Shown here piece by piece: positions 3,501-49,385 of a stretch of 64,000 bases of DNA. The DNA lies in IMG/VR virus record IMGVR_UViG_3300042884_001120, positions 90,361-154,360 of that record; one strand, given 5' to 3'. Position numbers and translations under genes: made by a program. Position 1 is the stretch's first letter. Each line of letters starts with the position of its first letter. Source of the stretch: a virus. A model generated the notes under the pieces. The model had not been told where the DNA came from and ran no database searches. It saw only the letters and a program-made list of their open reading frames with translations.

Positions 3501-6346
3501 ATTAAAGCCGCTTTTCTTGTGGCAATTTCTTCTTGATACGAGCGCTTGACATTTGGAATTTGAAAAGCTAGTAGTGTTGCAAAACTTGTAAGTTGCGCGC
3601 CAACAGCTGTAACAGTTGAACTAATACTAGTACCATCTCCCTCTGCAAAATTTGGTATATATCCCTTTGCATAACCACGATTTGACATCGCGCGTTTATC
3701 GGCTGAGGTAGAGCCCTCGTCTCGCTTGTTAAACACGCCAACACCCATTGGATTACTAGAATTTACTAGCTCTGGATATTGTCTGGTATATATGCCGCTC
3801 TTCGGTACTCCAGCGCCAATTTCGCGTGATATTGATTCGTTTAAGGCATTTGCAAAGTTAGGAATATAGCCACTTGCAAATCCGGGCTTTCTTCTTGCTG
3901 GCTTACCGGGTGCTTTTCTTTTCGTTCGCTGTTCGGCACTGCTTCCAAGTATGGCATCTCTACCACCCCTTTCTTTAATAACTTTATCAGCAAAACTTAA
4001 AAGATTACCAGAAGATGCGGATACTTTAAAATCAGCAAGATTTCCAGCATAACCAAATAATTGTTTTAATTTATCAGCGTTTTGTCCACCCCTTACGTCA
4101 AAATCTCCCATATTTGCTGTAGATTTTGCCGCTATATAATCTAACGATTTAGATATAGCAACTTCAAACGCAGACCCAACAAAACCCTGTAAAGCGCCAT
4201 AAGCACCCCTAGACCCACCATCTTTTTCACTTAAAAAACTCTGACTCAGAACTGATTCATCAACACCCTGACCAAGTGGTTGTAAAGTTTTTATATAATC
4301 AGCAACTGTCTGTAATCCTTGTTTTTTTATCAACTCATTTAAATTACCAGCTGGTTTTACTGCGCCCTTTTTATATCCACGGACTGGTATATCCGTTACT
4401 AATATATCTCTATTATTTTTTCCAACTGAACTTGCGTTCGGAAATGTTCCATATTCTGGAACTAACACGCTTGCATTAGAGTTTATACTAGTTTTTGCAT
4501 TAGATTCTGCAAAATTAGGAATATATCCACGACCATACATTGGAATAACAGCAGAATCACCATTTTTACCAAATCTTGGTATTTCCACTTCTTCACTATT
4601 CTTAATAAATTTCTTACCACCAATAGTTCCTCTACTTAATTGCGCCCTTGGGTTTTTAGCACCTAATGCTTTAGCTTGCGCTTCTTCCATTGCGTACTGA
4701 TCAGCAAAATTTGGAATATAACCAGCGGCTTTCGTAGTTACTGGGACTTGACTGCCCTTTGGAACTCTAACACCAGCGCCAAATAAATTTTTTGATATTT
4801 GGGAAGTTAATGCGGCCTGTTGCTGCATTTGTGTAGTTTGTTGCTGAAGAACTGTTAATAAAACCTGAGAAGCCTGATTGACACTCATTGCCCCACTCGC
4901 CATTTGTTGATACAGCTGTGGATTTTTTGCTAATATTGCAGAAATACTAGCTTGAATACCTTGCTGTTGAGATGCCGTTGCGTTTAAACCTAGCAACTCC
5001 TTCACACTTCCTGCTGAAAATTTTGCGAAGTCTCCAAAAAGTTTTAACAAAACACCACCAACAAGTGCCAAACCGGGACCAGCGATAATATCTCCTAGCC
5101 CCTTTAAGATGCCATTTCCAATTTTGCCGCCAACACTTTCGCTATCTACATTATTTAAAGACTCTAATAAACTATTTCCTCCACCAACTAAATTTTCTAG
5201 CGCTGGGCCAAAAAGAGACTCTCCAGATTTTGCGGCAAACTGGGTTGCATTTTGCTTTAGGGCGTTAACTTGCGCAGCTAAAGTTTTGTTTAATTGATCA
5301 TTTCTTGTAATCGCCTCGTTTGTCGCAGTAGAAGATATTTGAACTGCGTTATTATAAACAGAATACTCTTTACCCAAATCAGATAGGGCAGCTTTTAAAA
5401 TGTTAATCTGGAAAACACCACCGACAGCTTCAGCAACCGAAGCCTGTTGTTGAGAGCCAAGAGTATCATAAACCTTTCCAAGATCTTTTAATAAATCAAT
5501 AGTTGATCTTAGTTGTCCACTAGCATCCGTAGTTTCGATACCGAGACTACCAAGTAAGTCAACAACCTTACCACGCTGAAGCCTTGTAAAAATTGTCTTA
5601 AACGAGTTACCAATAACTGCACCACCACGGGCAGTTGTCTGCTGTGCAGAGGTAACCAAACCAATAAGTTCATCTAACTGAACACCAGATTGAGAAGCAC
5701 TGCTACCAACACGACTAATTGCTTCTGCCAAGTCAGCGGAACTAACCGCGAACGCCGCATCAACTGTTGCAAACTTATTAACTATTTGCGTTGCAGTTAC
5801 AGACTGAGAGGCGAAACTGTTAACAGCTGCCGTTAATGCCTCAACGCTCTTTACTGTATCTAAACCGCTTAATCTTGCTAAAATCAGGGCCTCGCTTGTA
5901 CGTTTTAGCGTCTCCTCTACACCAAGGCCCTGACGTGAAAATTCTGTAGCGGCCTTTGCGACTTCCGCAAACGACTGGCCGGTATTTTTTGCAACATTAA
6001 AAAGAGAATCGCCAAATTTAGCTATTTGTTTATCAGATACATTTAAAATTACATTAATATCTGCAAGAGATTTCTCTACTTCAATCGTAGATGTTATTAA
6101 TGATTCGAAAGCCTTATTTAAACCATATAAAATAGTTGCACTAGCACCGAAAGCAACAACACGCGCGTTTGCCGCATCCAAGGATTTATTAAATTCAGAA
6201 AGCTGTCCAGTAATTCTACCTAATGGCTGGTTGCCCTTAGTGCTTAAATTTAAATTAAGATTATACTGTTGATTAACTAGTTTTTGTATCGCAGCATATG
6301 CTGGAGATACATTAGCATTAATATTAACTGTTGCTTGTGCGGGCAT
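557..6346 (-). CDS. tail tape measure protein
   Basis: 1929 aa, Ala/Gln/Lys-rich helical; N-terminal TP901-like core (FAVSSADLAEAISRVG...IGNSFKTIFTRL); follows tail tube and chaperone genes. Confidence 0.9.
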   Translation of the reverse strand: MPAQATVNINANVSPAYAAIQKLVNQQYNLNLNLSTKGNQPLGRITGQLSEFNKSLDAANARVVAFGASATILYGLNKAFESLITSTIEVEKSLADINVILNVSDKQIAKFGDSLFNVAKNTGQSFAEVAKAATEFSRQGLGVEETLKRTSEALILARLSGLDTVKSVEALTAAVNSFASQSVTATQIVNKFATVDAAFAVSSADLAEAISRVGSSASQSGVQLDELIGLVTSAQQTTARGGAVIGNSFKTIFTRLQRGKVVDLLGSLGIETTDASGQLRSTIDLLKDLGKVYDTLGSQQQASVAEAVGGVFQINILKAALSDLGKEYSVYNNAVQISSTATNEAITRNDQLNKTLAAQVNALKQNATQFAAKSGESLFGPALENLVGGGNSLLESLNNVDSESVGGKIGNGILKGLGDIIAGPGLALVGGVLLKLFGDFAKFSAGSVKELLGLNATASQQQGIQASISAILAKNPQLYQQMASGAMSVNQASQVLLTVLQQQTTQMQQQAALTSQISKNLFGAGVRVPKGSQVPVTTKAAGYIPNFADQYAMEEAQAKALGAKNPRAQLSRGTIGGKKFIKNSEEVEIPRFGKNGDSAVIPMYGRGYIPNFAESNAKTSINSNASVLVPEYGTFPNASSVGKNNRDILVTDIPVRGYKKGAVKPAGNLNELIKKQGLQTVADYIKTLQPLGQGVDESVLSQSFLSEKDGGSRGAYGALQGFVGSAFEVAISKSLDYIAAKSTANMGDFDVRGGQNADKLKQLFGYAGNLADFKVSASSGNLLSFADKVIKERGGRDAILGSSAEQRTKRKAPGKPARRKPGFASGYIPNFANALNESISREIGAGVPKSGIYTRQYPELVNSSNPMGVGVFNKRDEGSTSADKRAMSNRGYAKGYIPNFAEGDGTSISSTVTAVGAQLTSFATLLAFQIPNVKRSYQEEIATRKAALIQVTTEEISQRREAAKQLSATQTQERNQLAQEIKDRRAKLKTIQAGGAETLSRGARNASRLQAGAGAAGTALAFAPIIAETVASSIDTTNKEGRVKSAAVTGIGTALSAAGTGALVGSALGPVGTAIGGALGLAVGGLTAWTKALNESRTNLPELQASTKKTSEEQSRLAEVTQAVLPKLEQLQELRQGGNAGSREAVALEKEIRAIASNASPEAQKAISAGGLDFAKTQKNLTDVLKTLSDRLAKQGAAVQSTSIAEAAIGGKINKEQFGAQISKQAISGKTDAELKAMGDELSSATIDLSKLRGALGLTEEQAGKLEQQFGNSWQSFAQDLAKAISEEKRIRLDGARNTAKGFVDRNQAAVKALQDFENKLKKVISSMDIATRTSIATSGAEFASDFKRTKSTGQVDILEALGFEKAASNLKTKNIYQDTIGAQQTKSAADIDEAIKQSLNTAFEKAIPTATGVKDFSQYNDIRGQLGDLSGVTGNQDFSKKIQDISAKIGSVKTNTIQGPLGPLEQYDTEGMISALKENGVKDEEQLNKLRETFNSNNKLLFAAQKDAATKTVQRLDELIKVTIQEMDKLGGTMDQMFNDGGMGDNSVSDKFTEATDNFIAVQKDTTATDEQRGQAASDWIKAYQATGGTIDTSNPMYQMAVESMAKIGQKQQASIEANLAKVGLDPAMAARTVRQTTGALTSEQGLMEAAKVKAGIAFKPTDANIQSARVEQLRGKQSDIISKLGPEGAALSATYGAATEEVNKIPDGIRSLGDVFTTQIGMSNGYLSNMVSILGGLAGQGAQLPGMAAQEVQKGGDLSTIFNPAVGMNSAALMGGRNLLESAPNQMYRERFTMPDAALESQRAQTLPGSPLANPYQGMMLSTQGEMDVIQRQKEETQRNMTQAQAGESSLSFNSPITIAINAASQAQGQQIQQELQGVDQEIIDVIQGRLAKVEAIAAATVTKDPSLNPPPKKPKPLFNVLGLNIT

Positions 6347-43299: not shown

Positions 43300-43371
43300 C
43301 GCAGAGTAGAGAACTGGTATCTCGTCACGCTCATAACGTGAAGGTAGTGGGTTCGATTCCCGCCTCTGCCA
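43300..43371 (+). tRNA. tRNA-Met(CAT), initiator-like
   Basis: cloverleaf; C1:C72 mismatch, A11:U24; anticodon loop CTCATAA; no encoded CCA. Confidence 0.8.
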
Positions 43372-46136: not shown

Positions 46137-46214
46137 TGGAGCGTCAGGTAGGATTTGCACCTACGGCTTTAGGGTTTTGCAGACCCTTCCTTTGGGCTAC
46201 TCAGGCACTGACGC
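46137..46214 (-). tRNA. tRNA-Cys(GCA)
   Basis: cloverleaf, U73, CCA. Confidence 0.85.
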
Positions 46215-46220
46215 GTTATT

Positions 46221-46295
46221 TGGCATTCTCGACGGGATTCGAACCCGTGCTAAACCCGTGAAAGGGGCTGGTGCTAACCGCTACACTACGAGAAC
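46221..46295 (-). tRNA. tRNA-Glu(TTC)
   Basis: cloverleaf, CCA. Confidence 0.9.
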
Positions 46296-46304
46296 ATAAA
46301 ATTT

Positions 46305-46379
46305 TGGTGGGATCGGAGGGATTTGAACCCTCAACCAATTCGTTAAAAGCGAACTGCTCTACCATTGAGCTACAATCCC
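46305..46379 (-). tRNA. tRNA-Lys(TTT)
   Basis: cloverleaf, CCA. Confidence 0.92.
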
Positions 46380-46384
46380 ATATT

Positions 46385-46461
46385 TGGCGGAACCAAGGGG
46401 ACTTGAACCCCTGACCCCCTGCGTGACAGGCAGGTGCTCTAACCAACTGAGCTATGATTCC
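46385..46461 (-). tRNA. tRNA-Asp(GTC)
   Basis: cloverleaf, CCA. Confidence 0.92.
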
Positions 46462-46499
46462 ATTTTATAAGTTTGGAATATTTGGAAGGTGTTGTCAAG

Positions 46500-46574
46500 T
46501 GGTGTCTCGTGTTGGAATCGAACCAACATTAGATCTTTAGAAGAGATCTGTCCTATCCGTTGAACGAACGAGAC
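46500..46574 (-). tRNA. tRNA-Arg(TCT)
   Basis: cloverleaf, CCA. Confidence 0.9.
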
Positions 46575-46620
46575 GAAATTTTTTAGATACATATGTAGCT
46601 TAGAGTGTAATATATAGTAT

Positions 46621-47142
46621 ATGAAAACGTGTGAGCTATGTCAATCTGAATTCCCAAATTGGATAAAAATAGATGGTAAGAATAAAAATCTAAAAAATAG
46701 AAAGTATTGTTTAGAATGCTCACCTTGGGGCCAGCACAATACCATTAATAGAAAAAAGAGGGAACATACTCATTGTATTATTTGTAATAGTAAATTAAAA
46801 GAAAGTCAATTAAAGTTTTGCTCTAAAGCCTGTAAGGGTGCTAATGCTTACCAGAATAATCCTAATTGGTATCCAGCTCAGAAACAAAGAGGCATAGATA
46901 GAAAAAAAGAATTGGCATTGCTTAAAGGTGGGAAATGTGAATCTTGTGGATACGATAAAAACTTAGCTGCGCTAGAGTTTCATCATAGGGATCCAAAGGA
47001 TAAAGTGTCTGAATTAGATTCTCGTGTTCTTTCTAATAGAAAATGGGATTTTATTTTAGGAGAGGCCGAAAAATGTTTATTGTTATGTTCTAATTGTCAT
47101 CGCGAACATCATTGCGATGATTTTAATAATTGGAAAGAATAG
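46621..47142 (+). CDS. free-standing HNH (homing) endonuclease
   Basis: N-terminal Zn ribbons; CESCGY...LEFHHRDP...KCLLLCSNCHREHH; GTGTAA motif upstream. Confidence 0.85.
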   Translation: MKTCELCQSEFPNWIKIDGKNKNLKNRKYCLECSPWGQHNTINRKKREHTHCIICNSKLKESQLKFCSKACKGANAYQNNPNWYPAQKQRGIDRKKELALLKGGKCESCGYDKNLAALEFHHRDPKDKVSELDSRVLSNRKWDFILGEAEKCLLLCSNCHREHHCDDFNNWKE

Positions 47143-47416
47143 TGCGCCCGGAGGGATTCGAACCCCCAACCAATCAGTTATGCTTTACCACTTCGGTTTT
47201 CACCGCCCTTTCGGTTTGTGGTCTGGACTTTACCTTCATCCTTTAGGATGCCCCCCGTCAAGTCTCTACACCTTCATCTTTCGATGCTTGGCTCGGTATT
47301 AGGATTTTACACCCTTCACCGACTTTGAGGAGTTATCATCCAAGAGTTTCCCCTTGGTGAGCCCAACCTGCTTTCACAGGTTTAGCCGACTGCTCTGACC
47401 ATTGAGCTACAAGCGC
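47143..47416 (-). tRNA. tRNA(CAT), probably Ile2, interrupted by a group I intron
   Basis: 5' exon 47416-47384 (33 nt, ends U33), 3' exon 47182-47143 starts CATAA; spliced product folds as a cloverleaf. Confidence 0.85.
47183..47383 (-). mobile_element. group I intron (IC3-like), 201 nt, ORF-less
   Basis: P CTCAAAGTCGGTGAA, Q AATACCGAGCCAAG, R GTGTAGAGACTTGA, S AAGGTAAAGTCC; U.G at the 5' splice site; terminal G. Confidence 0.9.
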
Positions 47417-47437
47417 GTTAAATTATATTTTTATATT

Positions 47438-47513
47438 TGGTAGCTGTGGTCGGATTCGAACCGACACTTGAGCGATTTTAAGTCGCTTGTCTCTGCCGTT
47501 GGACTACACAGCC
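47438..47513 (-). tRNA. tRNA-Leu(TAA), short variable loop
   Basis: loop CTTAAAA; 76 nt with CCA. Confidence 0.8.
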
Positions 47514-47558
47514 ATAGATGAATAATAAAGATTTTTTATTTGAGTGTCAAACAAATTA

Positions 47559-47631
47559 CTGCCAAGGTAGGGATCGAACCTACGACCTAGAAGTTAACAG
47601 CTTCCCGCTACTACCGCTGAGCTACTTGGCA
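47559..47631 (-). tRNA. tRNA-Asn(GTT)
   Basis: cloverleaf, G73, no CCA. Confidence 0.88.
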
Positions 47632-47637
47632 TTAAAA

Positions 47638-47817
47638 TTATTTGGTTTCCTTACGGGAAAGTTTGGGGACAGTATTTGTCATCAACTGCCTATTTAGGCG
47701 ATACTCCGCAATCATCGCCTGCCATTCCTCGTCCTTTAAACCCTTTGGGCGATTAGCGGTGAACTTGCGTGTTTTATTATTTGCTTTGAATATAGATAGA
47801 TTAGGCCAAACGTGCAT
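47638..47817 (-). CDS. basic hypothetical protein
   Basis: 59 aa between tRNAs. Confidence 0.4.
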   Translation of the reverse strand: MHVWPNLSIFKANNKTRKFTANRPKGLKDEEWQAMIAEYRLNRQLMTNTVPKLSRKETK

Positions 47818-47837
47818 ATTTTTATTTTGTTTTAATT

Positions 47838-47932
47838 TGGAAGTGGGTATGGGAATCGAACCCATGCTCGTCCCTCATCTAGGGAACACAGATTATAAGT
47901 CTGTCGGTGCTATCCAATTACACTAACCCACC
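47838..47932 (-). tRNA. tRNA with TAT (Ile) anticodon and long variable arm
   Basis: ACAGA-CTTATAA-TCTGT; TCCCT/AGGGA variable stem; U73; CCA. Confidence 0.8.
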
Positions 47933-47942
47933 ACTATAATCA

Positions 47943-48437
47943 TTATACAGAAACTTTATTATCCTGTCTAGCTTCTTCTTTCCTAATTGCGGTTTGGGAT
48001 TCAGCGAGGGCACACAATATACGATCTGCATGCTCGTCATTCCATTCCTTGTAGGATACAGCAGTAGCTTCTAGCTCCTCGTATATATAAGCGTCATCTG
48101 CAAGAGCAACCATAATTTTATAAGAAATATTTTCAAACGTTCCTTTACTGCATTTACCGTATAGATTTTCATTGTCGTCTAGTTCGCCACGGTCTCCAAT
48201 CTCTGCATAGTCACCAGCGACAACAATCCTATCTCCTGCCCAGCTTCCGACGATAGGGTTTTCAGAATGTAGATCTCCACCACCACGTCCGTTGCTATTA
48301 GCAAGCAGGCATGCTAAGGCGGTATTGGCTCCACCCTGAGAACAGCTGAACTCAAGAAGCTTCGTCCCGTGCCCGAAAGCATGAGGGTCTAGGTATTGTT
48401 TCTTGTCTAGGTTGACGATGTAGTAGTATTGGCCCAT
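47943..48437 (-). CDS. conserved-type hypothetical protein
   Basis: MGQYYYIVNLDKKQYL...GSWAGDRIVVAGDY. Confidence 0.75.
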   Translation of the reverse strand: MGQYYYIVNLDKKQYLDPHAFGHGTKLLEFSCSQGGANTALACLLANSNGRGGGDLHSENPIVGSWAGDRIVVAGDYAEIGDRGELDDNENLYGKCSKGTFENISYKIMVALADDAYIYEELEATAVSYKEWNDEHADRILCALAESQTAIRKEEARQDNKVSV

Positions 48438-48452
48438 AGTTTTAGTTTATAA

Positions 48453-48668
48453 TTAATTGTAGTAATCGTCAACATCTTCTTGGCAAAGATGGCAGCGAAA
48501 TTTAGAATTCATTGGGTTAGCCTTGTCTTCTGATATGATAAACAAGTCCAAACTTCCATCCAGTACTTGATCACCACAATAGGTGTGATCGCAATCCTTG
48601 CAATAGAAACGCATGTCTTCAGTTACGCCCTTTAGTGATAATATGGATGGCCTCCTTGTCATTTCCAA
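48453..48668 (-). CDS. zinc-finger hypothetical protein
   Basis: CKDC..C..CHLC. Confidence 0.55.
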   Translation of the reverse strand: MEMTRRPSILSLKGVTEDMRFYCKDCDHTYCGDQVLDGSLDLFIISEDKANPMNSKFRCHLCQEDVDDYYN

Positions 48669-48853
48669 GTGAATTTGGTTGTGGTTTGTTCGGTGGTATT
48701 AGTGCTTCTATATTCAGCATATCCTCTCTTGATTGCCTCTTTCTTCAAGGGATCGACTTGATACGATTGCATGAGTTGGCAAGCACTAAAGAATGCGACG
48801 ATTAATGTAATTACCATTGCACACAGGACTTCTTCAAGGTCGTATTGTTTCAT
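48659..48853 (-). CDS. membrane hypothetical protein
   Basis: TM plus EAIKRGYAEY...FTWK (similar ending to 36445..36714). Confidence 0.55.
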   Translation of the reverse strand: MKQYDLEEVLCAMVITLIVAFFSACQLMQSYQVDPLKKEAIKRGYAEYRSTNTTEQTTTKFTWK

Positions 48854-48857
48854 ATGA

Positions 48858-49106
48858 TTAAGAAATGATTCCGGTTTTCGTTCCGTCTTCGTTGTGCGCA
48901 AAGATTACGCTGGTTGCGTGGCCTCGCATAATGCATCGTGGCTGCCGCTTCTGGTCATGGCTCTCGACATCAATTCCAATTGTTTTAATTTTATTAACAA
49001 GATGGCAAGCGCCTTCCCAATGAATAGTGATGACATTTTTACCCAGCGCGCGCGACGCTGGTTTATTATAGTGGTAGAAGAAACGCTTGGGTTTGGGAGT
49101 TTTCAT
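48858..49106 (-). CDS. hypothetical protein
   Basis: RFFYHYNKPASR...QPRCIMRG; TTGCCA-17-TATAGT promoter. Confidence 0.7.
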   Translation of the reverse strand: MKTPKPKRFFYHYNKPASRALGKNVITIHWEGACHLVNKIKTIGIDVESHDQKRQPRCIMRGHATSVIFAHNEDGTKTGIIS

Positions 49107-49311
49107 GACCTTCACTATATGACTAGTTGGGCAGAGTGGCAAGAAGTATTTTTACAATTTGTTCATGTACACGTTTTGGCGTTTTATCGACACGTTCCGA
49201 GAACATGTCTACGGCATCGACATATTCTTTATATGTATAAATGATTGATAATGAACGACTTACGGTGCCGGGCTCCGCCGGGCTGTTGTAACCTATTGAT
49301 ATTGAAGGGTT

Positions 49312-49385
49312 TCGGAGTGACAGGATTCGAACCTGCGACTTCTTGCTCCCAAAGCAAGCGCACTACCAAGCTGTGCTACACTCCG
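49312..49385 (-). tRNA. tRNA-Pro(TGG)
   Basis: CGGAGTG acceptor, loop TTTGGGA. Confidence 0.9.

Follow-up and report, generated by a model that had tools for sequence, protein, structure and literature searches.

A probable phage tRNA-Ile2 gene interrupted at U33/C34 by a compact IC3-like group I intron, next to a free-standing HNH gene

A 73-nt tRNA(CAU) gene is found on the minus strand (47416-47143) of a stretch of viral DNA of 64,000 nucleotides, hereafter called the window, where it is interrupted between U33 and C34 by 201 nt. The window corresponds to bases 90361-154360 of the IMG/VR record IMGVR_UViG_3300042884_001120, a virus of 154,360 bp with direct terminal repeats, which is graded complete and whose GC content is 36%. 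According to the reading that we favour, and to which we would give a probability of roughly 0.85, the locus represents a tRNA(CAU) gene of the phage, functional and most likely of the tRNA-Ile2 kind, interrupted by a compact group I intron of the IC3 type that carries no open reading frame (ORF). This reading is proposed because of an Rfam match, of the covariation observed in the intron, of the existence of intron-less alleles and of the identity marks of the tRNA. DNA nearly identical to that of the phage occurs in metagenomes from lake, freshwater, wetland and soil, in 14 studies.

The 5′ exon (47416-47384, minus strand) supplies nucleotides 1-33 of the tRNA, that is the 5′ strand of the acceptor stem, the D arm, the 5′ strand of the anticodon stem, C32 and U33. 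It ends with GGCU. The intron (47383-47183, minus strand) starts with AAACC and ends with AAAG. The 3′ exon (47182-47143, minus strand) starts with CAUAA and contributes nucleotides 34-73, comprising the CAU anticodon (47182-47180), the 3′ strand of the anticodon stem, a 5-nt variable loop, the T arm, the 3′ strand of the acceptor stem and the discriminator A. Once joined, the exons give an anticodon loop CUCAUAA and a regular cloverleaf. A reading of the DNA made from the sequence only had placed a 201-nt insert at 33/34 within these same limits and had predicted that its removal would restore the loop; it had also proposed a survey of intron-less alleles as a check. The survey bears out both statements. 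The 25-mer that spans the exon junction is uninterrupted in 37 viral contigs, about half of which correspond to phage tRNA-array genes similar to the window tRNA. The intron-less tRNA of L022 (L numbers being the labels of loci and contigs used in the present analysis) is identical to the predicted spliced product at 73/73 positions, those of L014, L016, L039 and L029 at 72/73, and in all five nucleotides 1-33 are identical to the 5′ exon. These alleles share the array order Ile(UAU, long arm), then, further on, Leu(UAA), CAU, Arg(UCU), Lys and others. Therefore, the intron-less genes are orthologues that differ from the window by exactly 201 nt. Moreover, since the bases flanking the two intron ends are not the same (T versus G, A versus C), no shift of the junction is possible: as set by the natural alleles, U33 precedes the 5′ splice site and G201 (47183) precedes the 3′ splice site. 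In a default scan of the window, ARAGORN does not call the split gene. In its intron mode, the program finds the right frame but sets the junction at 34/35, yielding a tRNA-Phe(AAA) with a 182-nt intron. This junction was rejected since no pair of U-1 and terminal G is found there at the true indel and since it is contradicted by the intron-less alleles.

A second intron-bearing allele was identified in contig L043 (3372-3597, minus strand), with an intron 97% identical to that of the window. In the T stem of the tRNA, GGGGG/CCCUC is replaced by GUAGG/CCUAC and pairing is kept. In the intron, a U.G pair of the P1 extension becomes C-G and a G-C pair becomes G.U, again with pairing kept, and the changes in P3 are also pairing-preserving. 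With such compensatory changes, the tRNA and the ribozyme of the two alleles both look to be under selection. The intron-bearing allele is found in lake metagenome contigs from 4 studies, and no intron-less version of the same phage was seen among the metagenome contigs compared with the window. One contig joint (47173-47390, skipping 216 nt, depth 2.6, side 22) does not match the intron ends and was set aside as the tRNA of another organism.

The group I nature of the insert was assessed with the Rfam family RF00028, a check suggested by the sequence-only reading. A match was obtained at 47414-47202 (minus strand), with 38.3 bits. The E-values are 6.2e-8 when 1.2 kb was searched and 1.9e-9 for the whole phage, but the score is lower than the gathering score of 50, the threshold of the family; for this reason, an Rfam scan of the window at the gathering score reports no group I intron. 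The intron alone has a minimum free energy of -67.8 kcal/mol (z -4.2; 0/200 shuffles are as good), and the minimum-energy fold already contains the P1 extension, P2, P3, P5, P6, P6a, P8 and the P9 domain.

In the structural model, where the window coordinate is 47384 minus the intron position and all elements are on the minus strand, P1 (47387-47360) is formed between exon nucleotides G30-U33 (47387-47384) and the guide GGCU at intron positions 21-24 (47363-47360), with U33.G21 at the splice site. Beyond the guide, an A.G mismatch is followed by an extension of 7 bp (2-8 with 13-19) capped by GAAA. P2 (27-44; 47357-47340) is a hairpin with a GAAA loop. P3 (52-57 with 128-133, within 47332-47251) encloses P4 (62-66 with 87-91), P5 (70-72 with 81-83), P6 (92-94 with 112-114) and P6a (98-101 with 106-109, GAAA loop), as well as the 5′ strand of P7 (118-123). 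P7, in which 118 and 120-123 pair with 155-159 and A119 is bulged, is pseudoknotted with P3 and encloses P8 (134-147) and J8/7 (148-154); P7 and P8 lie within 47266-47225. Finally, the P9 domain (47222-47183) is composed of P9 (162-166 with 193-197), a CC-GAAA-GG hairpin (170-177), P9a (179-190, GAAA loop), AAA and G201. By reference to the group I family, G120-C158 is presumed to be the guanosine-binding pair.

Fifty-three compact relatives, viral as well as bacterial, were aligned with plain MAFFT, and the model of the window intron was mapped on the result. In this alignment, 88.5% of the cells pair, versus 74.0% in shuffles (0/500 reach the observed value), and the covariation score is 0.366 versus 0.132. 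When the partners are slid by 1-3 columns, pairing falls to 24-45%. Since the sequence used to derive the model is itself in the alignment, the model has some advantage, but the magnitude of the effect and the number of double changes go far beyond such a bias. P7 is invariant in 53/53 sequences. P3, P6 and P7 are 100% paired, P4 is paired at 99% and P9 at 97.6%. Covariation concerns 7/7 pairs of P2, 4/6 of P3, 4/5 of P8 and 4/4 of P9a; P5 and P6a are placed by the structural model. The U-1.G pair is observed in 51/53 relatives. The complete set of P, Q, R and S elements that had been recognised in the letters of the insert is thus found as a P3-P8 core with its P3/P7 pseudoknot. The U.G pair between exon GGCU and intron GGCU and the terminal G, also anticipated, are found as U33.G21 and G201, exactly at the ends of the 201 nt absent from the intron-less alleles. 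Taken together, the predicted fold of the 201-nt insert is clearly that of a group I ribozyme.

With regard to the subgroup, architecture and motif sharing suggest that the intron is IC3-like, that is of the bacterial tRNA type: it has a P2, a simple P5 without P5abc and peripheral hairpins capped by GNRA loops. The splicing pathway may be envisaged from the established chemistry of the group I family. The minus-strand tRNA array would be transcribed, and the intron would fold, with exon G30-U33 paired to the guide in P1 and the P3-P9 core, as demonstrated by covariation, organized around the P3/P7 pseudoknot. Free guanosine would attack after U33. G201 would then enter the guanosine site in P7, and the 3′-OH of U33 would attack after G201, thereby releasing the intron and ligating the exons. 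The ligated product would have the same sequence as the intron-less tRNAs of related phages. Host enzymes would trim its ends, add CCA and probably convert C34 to lysidine. At the DNA level, spreading would occur via cuts by an HNH endonuclease, the gene of which is described below, and repair.

Which tRNA is interrupted deserves a separate discussion. That it is an AUA-reading tRNA-Ile2 appears probable to us because of its non-initiator body, its acceptor marks, its anticodon arm, the initiator-like character of the other CAU tRNA of the phage and the use of AUA. Indeed, G1-C72 is paired and the D stem contains C11-G24 rather than A11-U24. The other CAU tRNA (43300-43371, plus strand) has a C1xC72 mismatch and A11-U24; it is devoid of the three G-C pairs in the anticodon stem. 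In the acceptor stem, G3-C70 and C4-G69 are present as in Ile2, in agreement with the Ile2-like character that had been noticed from the letters, and 5-68 is U.G, not C-G. For Silva et al. (PMC1635315), G3-C70 is an argument against both Met and fMet; in Ile2, the 3-70 pair is not C-G, and C4-G69 and C5-G68 are frequent; and the separation of Met from Ile2 needs profiles, the marks not being universal. The search with the junction 25-mer shows that the anticodon arm, including G27.U43, is identical to that of a group of bacterial Ile2-type CAU genes. The T arm and acceptor of these bacterial genes presumably resemble those of E. coli ileX. Compared with E. coli genomes, the split tRNA has tRNA-Arg and tRNA-Asn as best matches (74-82%), which is of no help for its identity. 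In a crude set of ORFs of the phage, about 27 codons per 1000 are AUA, and the tRNA set of the phage is otherwise aimed at A-ending codons. An elongator tRNA-Met that reads AUG, which would leave the interpretation of the intron unchanged, is to our mind rather unlikely. It is in line with the fact that ARAGORN calls the intron-less alleles Met, with the U.G at 5-68 and with the non-universality of the marks. No TilS was found in the phage either; modification of C34 would therefore fall to a host enzyme. But G3-C70 is a negative mark for both Met and fMet, C4-G69 and G27.U43 match Ile2, the anticodon arm is shared with genes that we take to be ileX-like, and both the orientation of the tRNA set toward A-ending codons and the frequency of AUA argue for Ile2.

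Several observations have to be set against a functional, intron-bearing tRNA-Ile2 gene. As already mentioned, the Rfam score is below the family threshold. U5.G68 in place of C5-G68 keeps elongator Met as a less likely alternative to Ile2. Furthermore, the window allele encodes no CCA, unlike the intron-less alleles, L043 and most other tRNAs of the phage, and no CCA-adding enzyme was found in the phage; TilS being missing as well, maturation would be wholly host-dependent. The loss of CCA has a likely cause in the neighbouring gene, that of a free-standing HNH endonuclease of 173 aa (46621-47142, plus strand; phrog_2255, E 5e-37; Pfam matches only weak). This gene is convergent with the split tRNA, and its stop codon adjoins the discriminator base: TAG (47141-47145 region) sits where the intron-less alleles and L043 carry CCA, and the HNH insertion appears to have removed the encoded CCA. 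Finally, homologues of this HNH protein and of a second HNH type present in L043 are also found between intron-less tRNA genes (L013:7809-8303; L023:3593-4057 and 4334-4828), so that HNH genes and introns are not strictly associated. One may then imagine that the intron is a decaying remnant, either unable to splice or in need of a host or phage protein helper, in a pseudogene or in a conditionally expressed gene. Loss of the CCA and the low Rfam score would fit with such a decay, and a second possible AUA reader, a tRNA(UAU) located 400 nt away, could make the loss tolerable. However, the core helices are all intact, P7 and J8/7 are invariant, the window and L043 differ by compensatory changes, in the intron as well as in the tRNA, and the allele is found in several lakes and studies, which renders this scenario improbable. 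Still more remote is the idea that no intron exists and that the locus consists of two tRNA halves, or of a chance insert resembling a group I core. Such an idea could appeal to the gene being missed by ARAGORN in default mode and to the different junction given in intron mode, but it is hardly tenable in front of E-values of 1e-8 to 1e-9, of covariation in every helix, of the exact 201-nt difference from the intron-less orthologues and of a U-1.G and a terminal G located exactly there.

The split gene belongs to a tRNA array. Eighteen tRNA genes of the phage are visible to ARAGORN, most of them in a minus-strand array (window 46137-49385), and the split tRNA occupies the gap between tRNA-Leu(UAA) and the HNH gene, which is blank in default ARAGORN and Rfam scans. 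The intron-less tRNA-Leu(UAA) called by ARAGORN (47513-47438, minus strand) is next upstream in the array; it is the tRNA most often occupied by the intron lineage in other phages, among the matches listed. A tRNA(UAU) with a long variable arm (47838-47932, minus strand) is located about 400 nt from the split tRNA. Its place near Leu(UAA) and the CAU tRNA is kept in viral contigs L009, L010, L013, L014, L016, L023, L029, L033, L038, L039 and L043. From this conserved order, the long-arm tRNA(UAU) can be considered a stable member of the array of this phage group, beside the probable Ile2. Pfam searches with eight large ORFs gave nothing that would place the phage in a family, and a megablast search with 20 kb of its DNA gave tRNA-sized matches only.

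Relatives of the intron were collected with a 21-nt core stretch, J6/7-P7-J7/3-P3′, used as a probe; this motif is, we presume, shared with the Azoarcus intron. The probe matches at least 120 viral and at least 120 bacterial loci, and the sample contains introns with one exact 21-mer only, so that the counts are biased and are not frequencies. Junctions were mapped with a heuristic script that seeks tRNA halves around each probe match, the viral junctions being otherwise checked only by alignment. Anticodons ATG and ACG returned by the script at 31/32 or 32/33 are probably mis-registered and were left unused. Most bacterial matches are in classical settings, tRNA-Leu(UAA) at 34/35 (at least 65 loci) and CAU at 36/37 (at least 9). 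CAU genes with an intron at 33/34 are found in at least 8 bacterial loci, some being clear initiators (Nitrospirales, Saccharibacteria) and others Ile2-like (Anaerolineae, Chloroflexia). Four classical bacterial settings, Leu.3Ug, Arg.5Ug, fMet.2Ug and Ile2.5Ug, all IC3 in GISSD, are given by Williams (2020; 10.1101/2020.01.27.920355), who adds 17 new settings and for whom fMet.2Ug designates an insertion after loop nucleotide 2, that is at 33/34. Since the position is the same, the location 5′ of the anticodon, held as distinctive by the sequence-only reading, does not set the intron apart. The small size had been stressed in the same manner and loses its distinctiveness too, the relatives measuring 176-199 nt: other phage tRNA introns of the sample have 184-199 nt and one in L043 has 176 nt.

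The introns most similar to that of the window, among the matches listed, interrupt tRNA-Leu(UAA) and tRNA-Lys(UUU) at 34/35 in viral contigs, with about 80% identity over about 175 nt; those of bacterial CAU genes at 33/34 are more distant (60-77%). The differences between the window intron and its relatives are concentrated in P1, P2, P5 and P8. This order of relatedness points to a phage-resident intron lineage that would have passed from one tRNA gene and loop position to another, each time inserting after a U. At least 84 viral probe matches are in tRNA genes, and another tRNA is found within 500 nt in 50/84 of them versus 8/105 of the bacterial ones, among the matches listed. On this basis, we take these tRNA neighbours to be the signature of phage tRNA arrays and not of host DNA at prophage ends. 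With the heuristic script, compact introns were assigned to Lys-UUU at 34/35 (L076, L081, L152), to Arg-UCU at 34/35 (L082, L105) and at 33/34 (L093), to Thr-UGU at 34/35 (L100, L156), to Asp-GUC at 33/34 (L077) and to Asn-GUU at 33/34 (L050). In the viral tRNA genes, among the matches listed, the intron always follows a U of the anticodon loop. L043 is the only other contig with a split CAU tRNA, and its tRNA-Leu(UAA) (4142-4399, minus strand) is split too, at 34/35, by the 176-nt intron (4365-4190), which Rfam does not report at E ≤ 0.01.

In the GenBank phage collection, relatives of the intron were found only in capsid genes, those of Pelagibacter phage HTVC120P and of an uncultured marine podovirus, and in huge metagenomic phages that are unannotated. 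In two of the latter, LR756501 and LR756511, the tRNA-Leu(UAA) is split by such a relative. In LR756501 (L003:1449-1665), whose record is unannotated, this intron is ORF-less. The major capsid gene of HTVC120P (L001, 19433-20607) and that of uvDeep KM23-C739 (L002) are interrupted by related small group I introns, the gene being annotated as two separate 'capsid protein' coding sequences; L002 holds two introns, matching RF00028 with 78 and 77 bits.

Coming back to the HNH gene, a 67% identical homologue is found at the same place in L043. Conversely, in contigs X5, X6 and X19, obtained in three runs of lake metagenomes, 46581 is followed directly by AAGTA and 47141, without the 559-nt segment of the HNH gene. 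The existence of this HNH-less variant makes the HNH gene a separate mobile unit. From contig depths, there is a hint that HNH-less genomes have the intron too, though contigs cannot prove linkage. The locus therefore associates a split gene with an adjacent HNH gene that is present or absent among genomes, as in a two-part homing unit. Among the matches listed, about 30 of the 84 viral tRNAs with an intron have a homologue of the window HNH or of the second HNH of L043 at a distance of about 1-150 nt. The second HNH ORF of L043 (4409-4834, minus strand), unrelated to the first, is directly upstream of the split tRNA-Leu(UAA), on the same strand. In LR756511 (L004, corresponding to LR756511.1 407722-410822, reverse complement; about 880-1650), an HNH ORF homologous to the free-standing one of L043 is inside the P6 loop of the tRNA-Leu(UAA) 34/35 intron, with its stop codon within the J6/7-P7 core. 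LR756511 is a 595-kb metagenomic phage, with an unannotated record.

The most economical reading of these arrangements is that HNH genes would home into phage tRNA clusters, where ORF-less introns would ride along and/or protect the cut site. Through cuts in alleles without them, the HNH gene would probably ensure its own spread and perhaps that of the intron. A wider view can be formulated, albeit tentatively, since we find it somewhat less convincing than not: phage tRNA arrays might be a large and overlooked home of phage-resident IC3 introns of 176-201 nt, moving among Leu-UAA, Lys-UUU, Arg-UCU, Thr-UGU, Asp, Asn and CAU loops, always after U, jointly with free-standing HNH genes. The nuclease would cut the empty alleles of co-infecting phages and the intron would make its own gene uncuttable. 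If this were true, relatives having the HNH inside the intron, as in LR756511, would represent the end point of a proposed pathway by which mobile introns are born.

In a review of 2014 (PMC3984707), all phage group I introns are stated to be in protein-coding genes, even though phages have numerous tRNA genes; the sequence-only reading had also placed classical phage group I introns in protein genes. Beyond this review and the study of Devoto et al. (2019; PMC6784885), the literature searched yielded no account of phage tRNA genes harbouring group I introns, an absence that holds for that literature and is not a proof. The element studied here is an IC3-like tRNA intron at a classical site, with a free-standing HNH partner, and its unusual aspect is its niche, a phage tRNA array, which is poorly documented. 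The window case and the dozens of relatives in viral contigs suggest that classical tRNA introns of the self-splicing type live in phage tRNA arrays. This matters for annotation. Standard tRNA finders miss such genes, and the decoding capacity of phages can be misjudged. In the present phage, the only Ile/AUA reader called by default ARAGORN is the odd long-arm tRNA(UAU), the probable Ile2(CAU) being invisible. Ribozyme studies gain from the lineage a set of natural ribozymes that match the small size of the Azoarcus model intron or go below it. With respect to the origin of mobile introns, it offers a natural series that allows tests: an ORF-less intron with an adjacent HNH, the same locus without HNH, and an HNH inside the intron.

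It is useful to compare the window intron with known systems. The group I intron of cyanobacterial tRNA-fMet, which Biniszkiewicz and colleagues are said to have described in 1994 as IC3, likewise follows U33 on the 5′ side of CAU, obeys the rule of the U.G pair and terminal G and has the architecture of compact tRNA introns. In contrast, the window tRNA is a non-initiator (G1-C72, C11-G24), is encoded by a phage and resides in a tRNA array. Compared with bacterial 33/34 introns, the window intron is closer to those of phage tRNA-Leu and tRNA-Lys genes, among the matches listed. In Synechocystis, an endonuclease of the PD-(D/E)XK type (I-Ssp6803I) is encoded within the fMet intron itself, whereas the window nuclease is an HNH protein encoded outside the intron. 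The Azoarcus tRNA-Ile intron also resides in a CAU Ile2 tRNA and is of similar size, ORF-less and provided with GNRA-capped P2 and P9. It would also share the J6/7-P7-J7/3-P3′ motif, which is found in at least 9 bacterial CAU 36/37 introns. However, the Azoarcus intron is at 36/37 in a bacterial host, with exon CAU paired to its guide, whereas that of the window is at 33/34 in a phage, with exon GGCU paired to its guide, and has a long GAAA-capped P1 extension. The introns of tRNA-Leu(UAA) at 34/35 include relatives of the window intron in viral contigs, the nearest ones at that site (about 80%, among the matches listed); the window intron differs from them by its tRNA and loop position, with P1, P2, P5 and P8 diverged.

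The organization with a nuclease gene outside the intron also has precedents. Zeng, Bonocora and Shub reportedly found in 2009 that F-CphI, a free-standing homing endonuclease, adjoins the cyanophage psbA intron. Protection of the cut site by the intron, or its riding along, has been proposed for this pair. Here too, the nuclease gene is outside an ORF-less intron and directly beside the split gene, except that the target of the window nuclease would be a tRNA gene, not psbA. In T4, SegB is a homing endonuclease located in the tRNA gene cluster (PMC2330249). The window nuclease has the same kind of location, but SegB is a GIY-YIG enzyme whereas the window protein is, by its sequence, of the HNH type. 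Finally, Devoto et al. (2019; PMC6784885) described introns in tRNA genes of Lak megaphages as 'enigmatic' and assigned them to no class though they were tested against Rfam; to the knowledge of these authors, no phage tRNA introns had been reported earlier. The Lak introns and that of the window have in common their residence within phage tRNA genes, but the former are unclassed whereas the latter, to judge by its fold, is clearly a group I intron.

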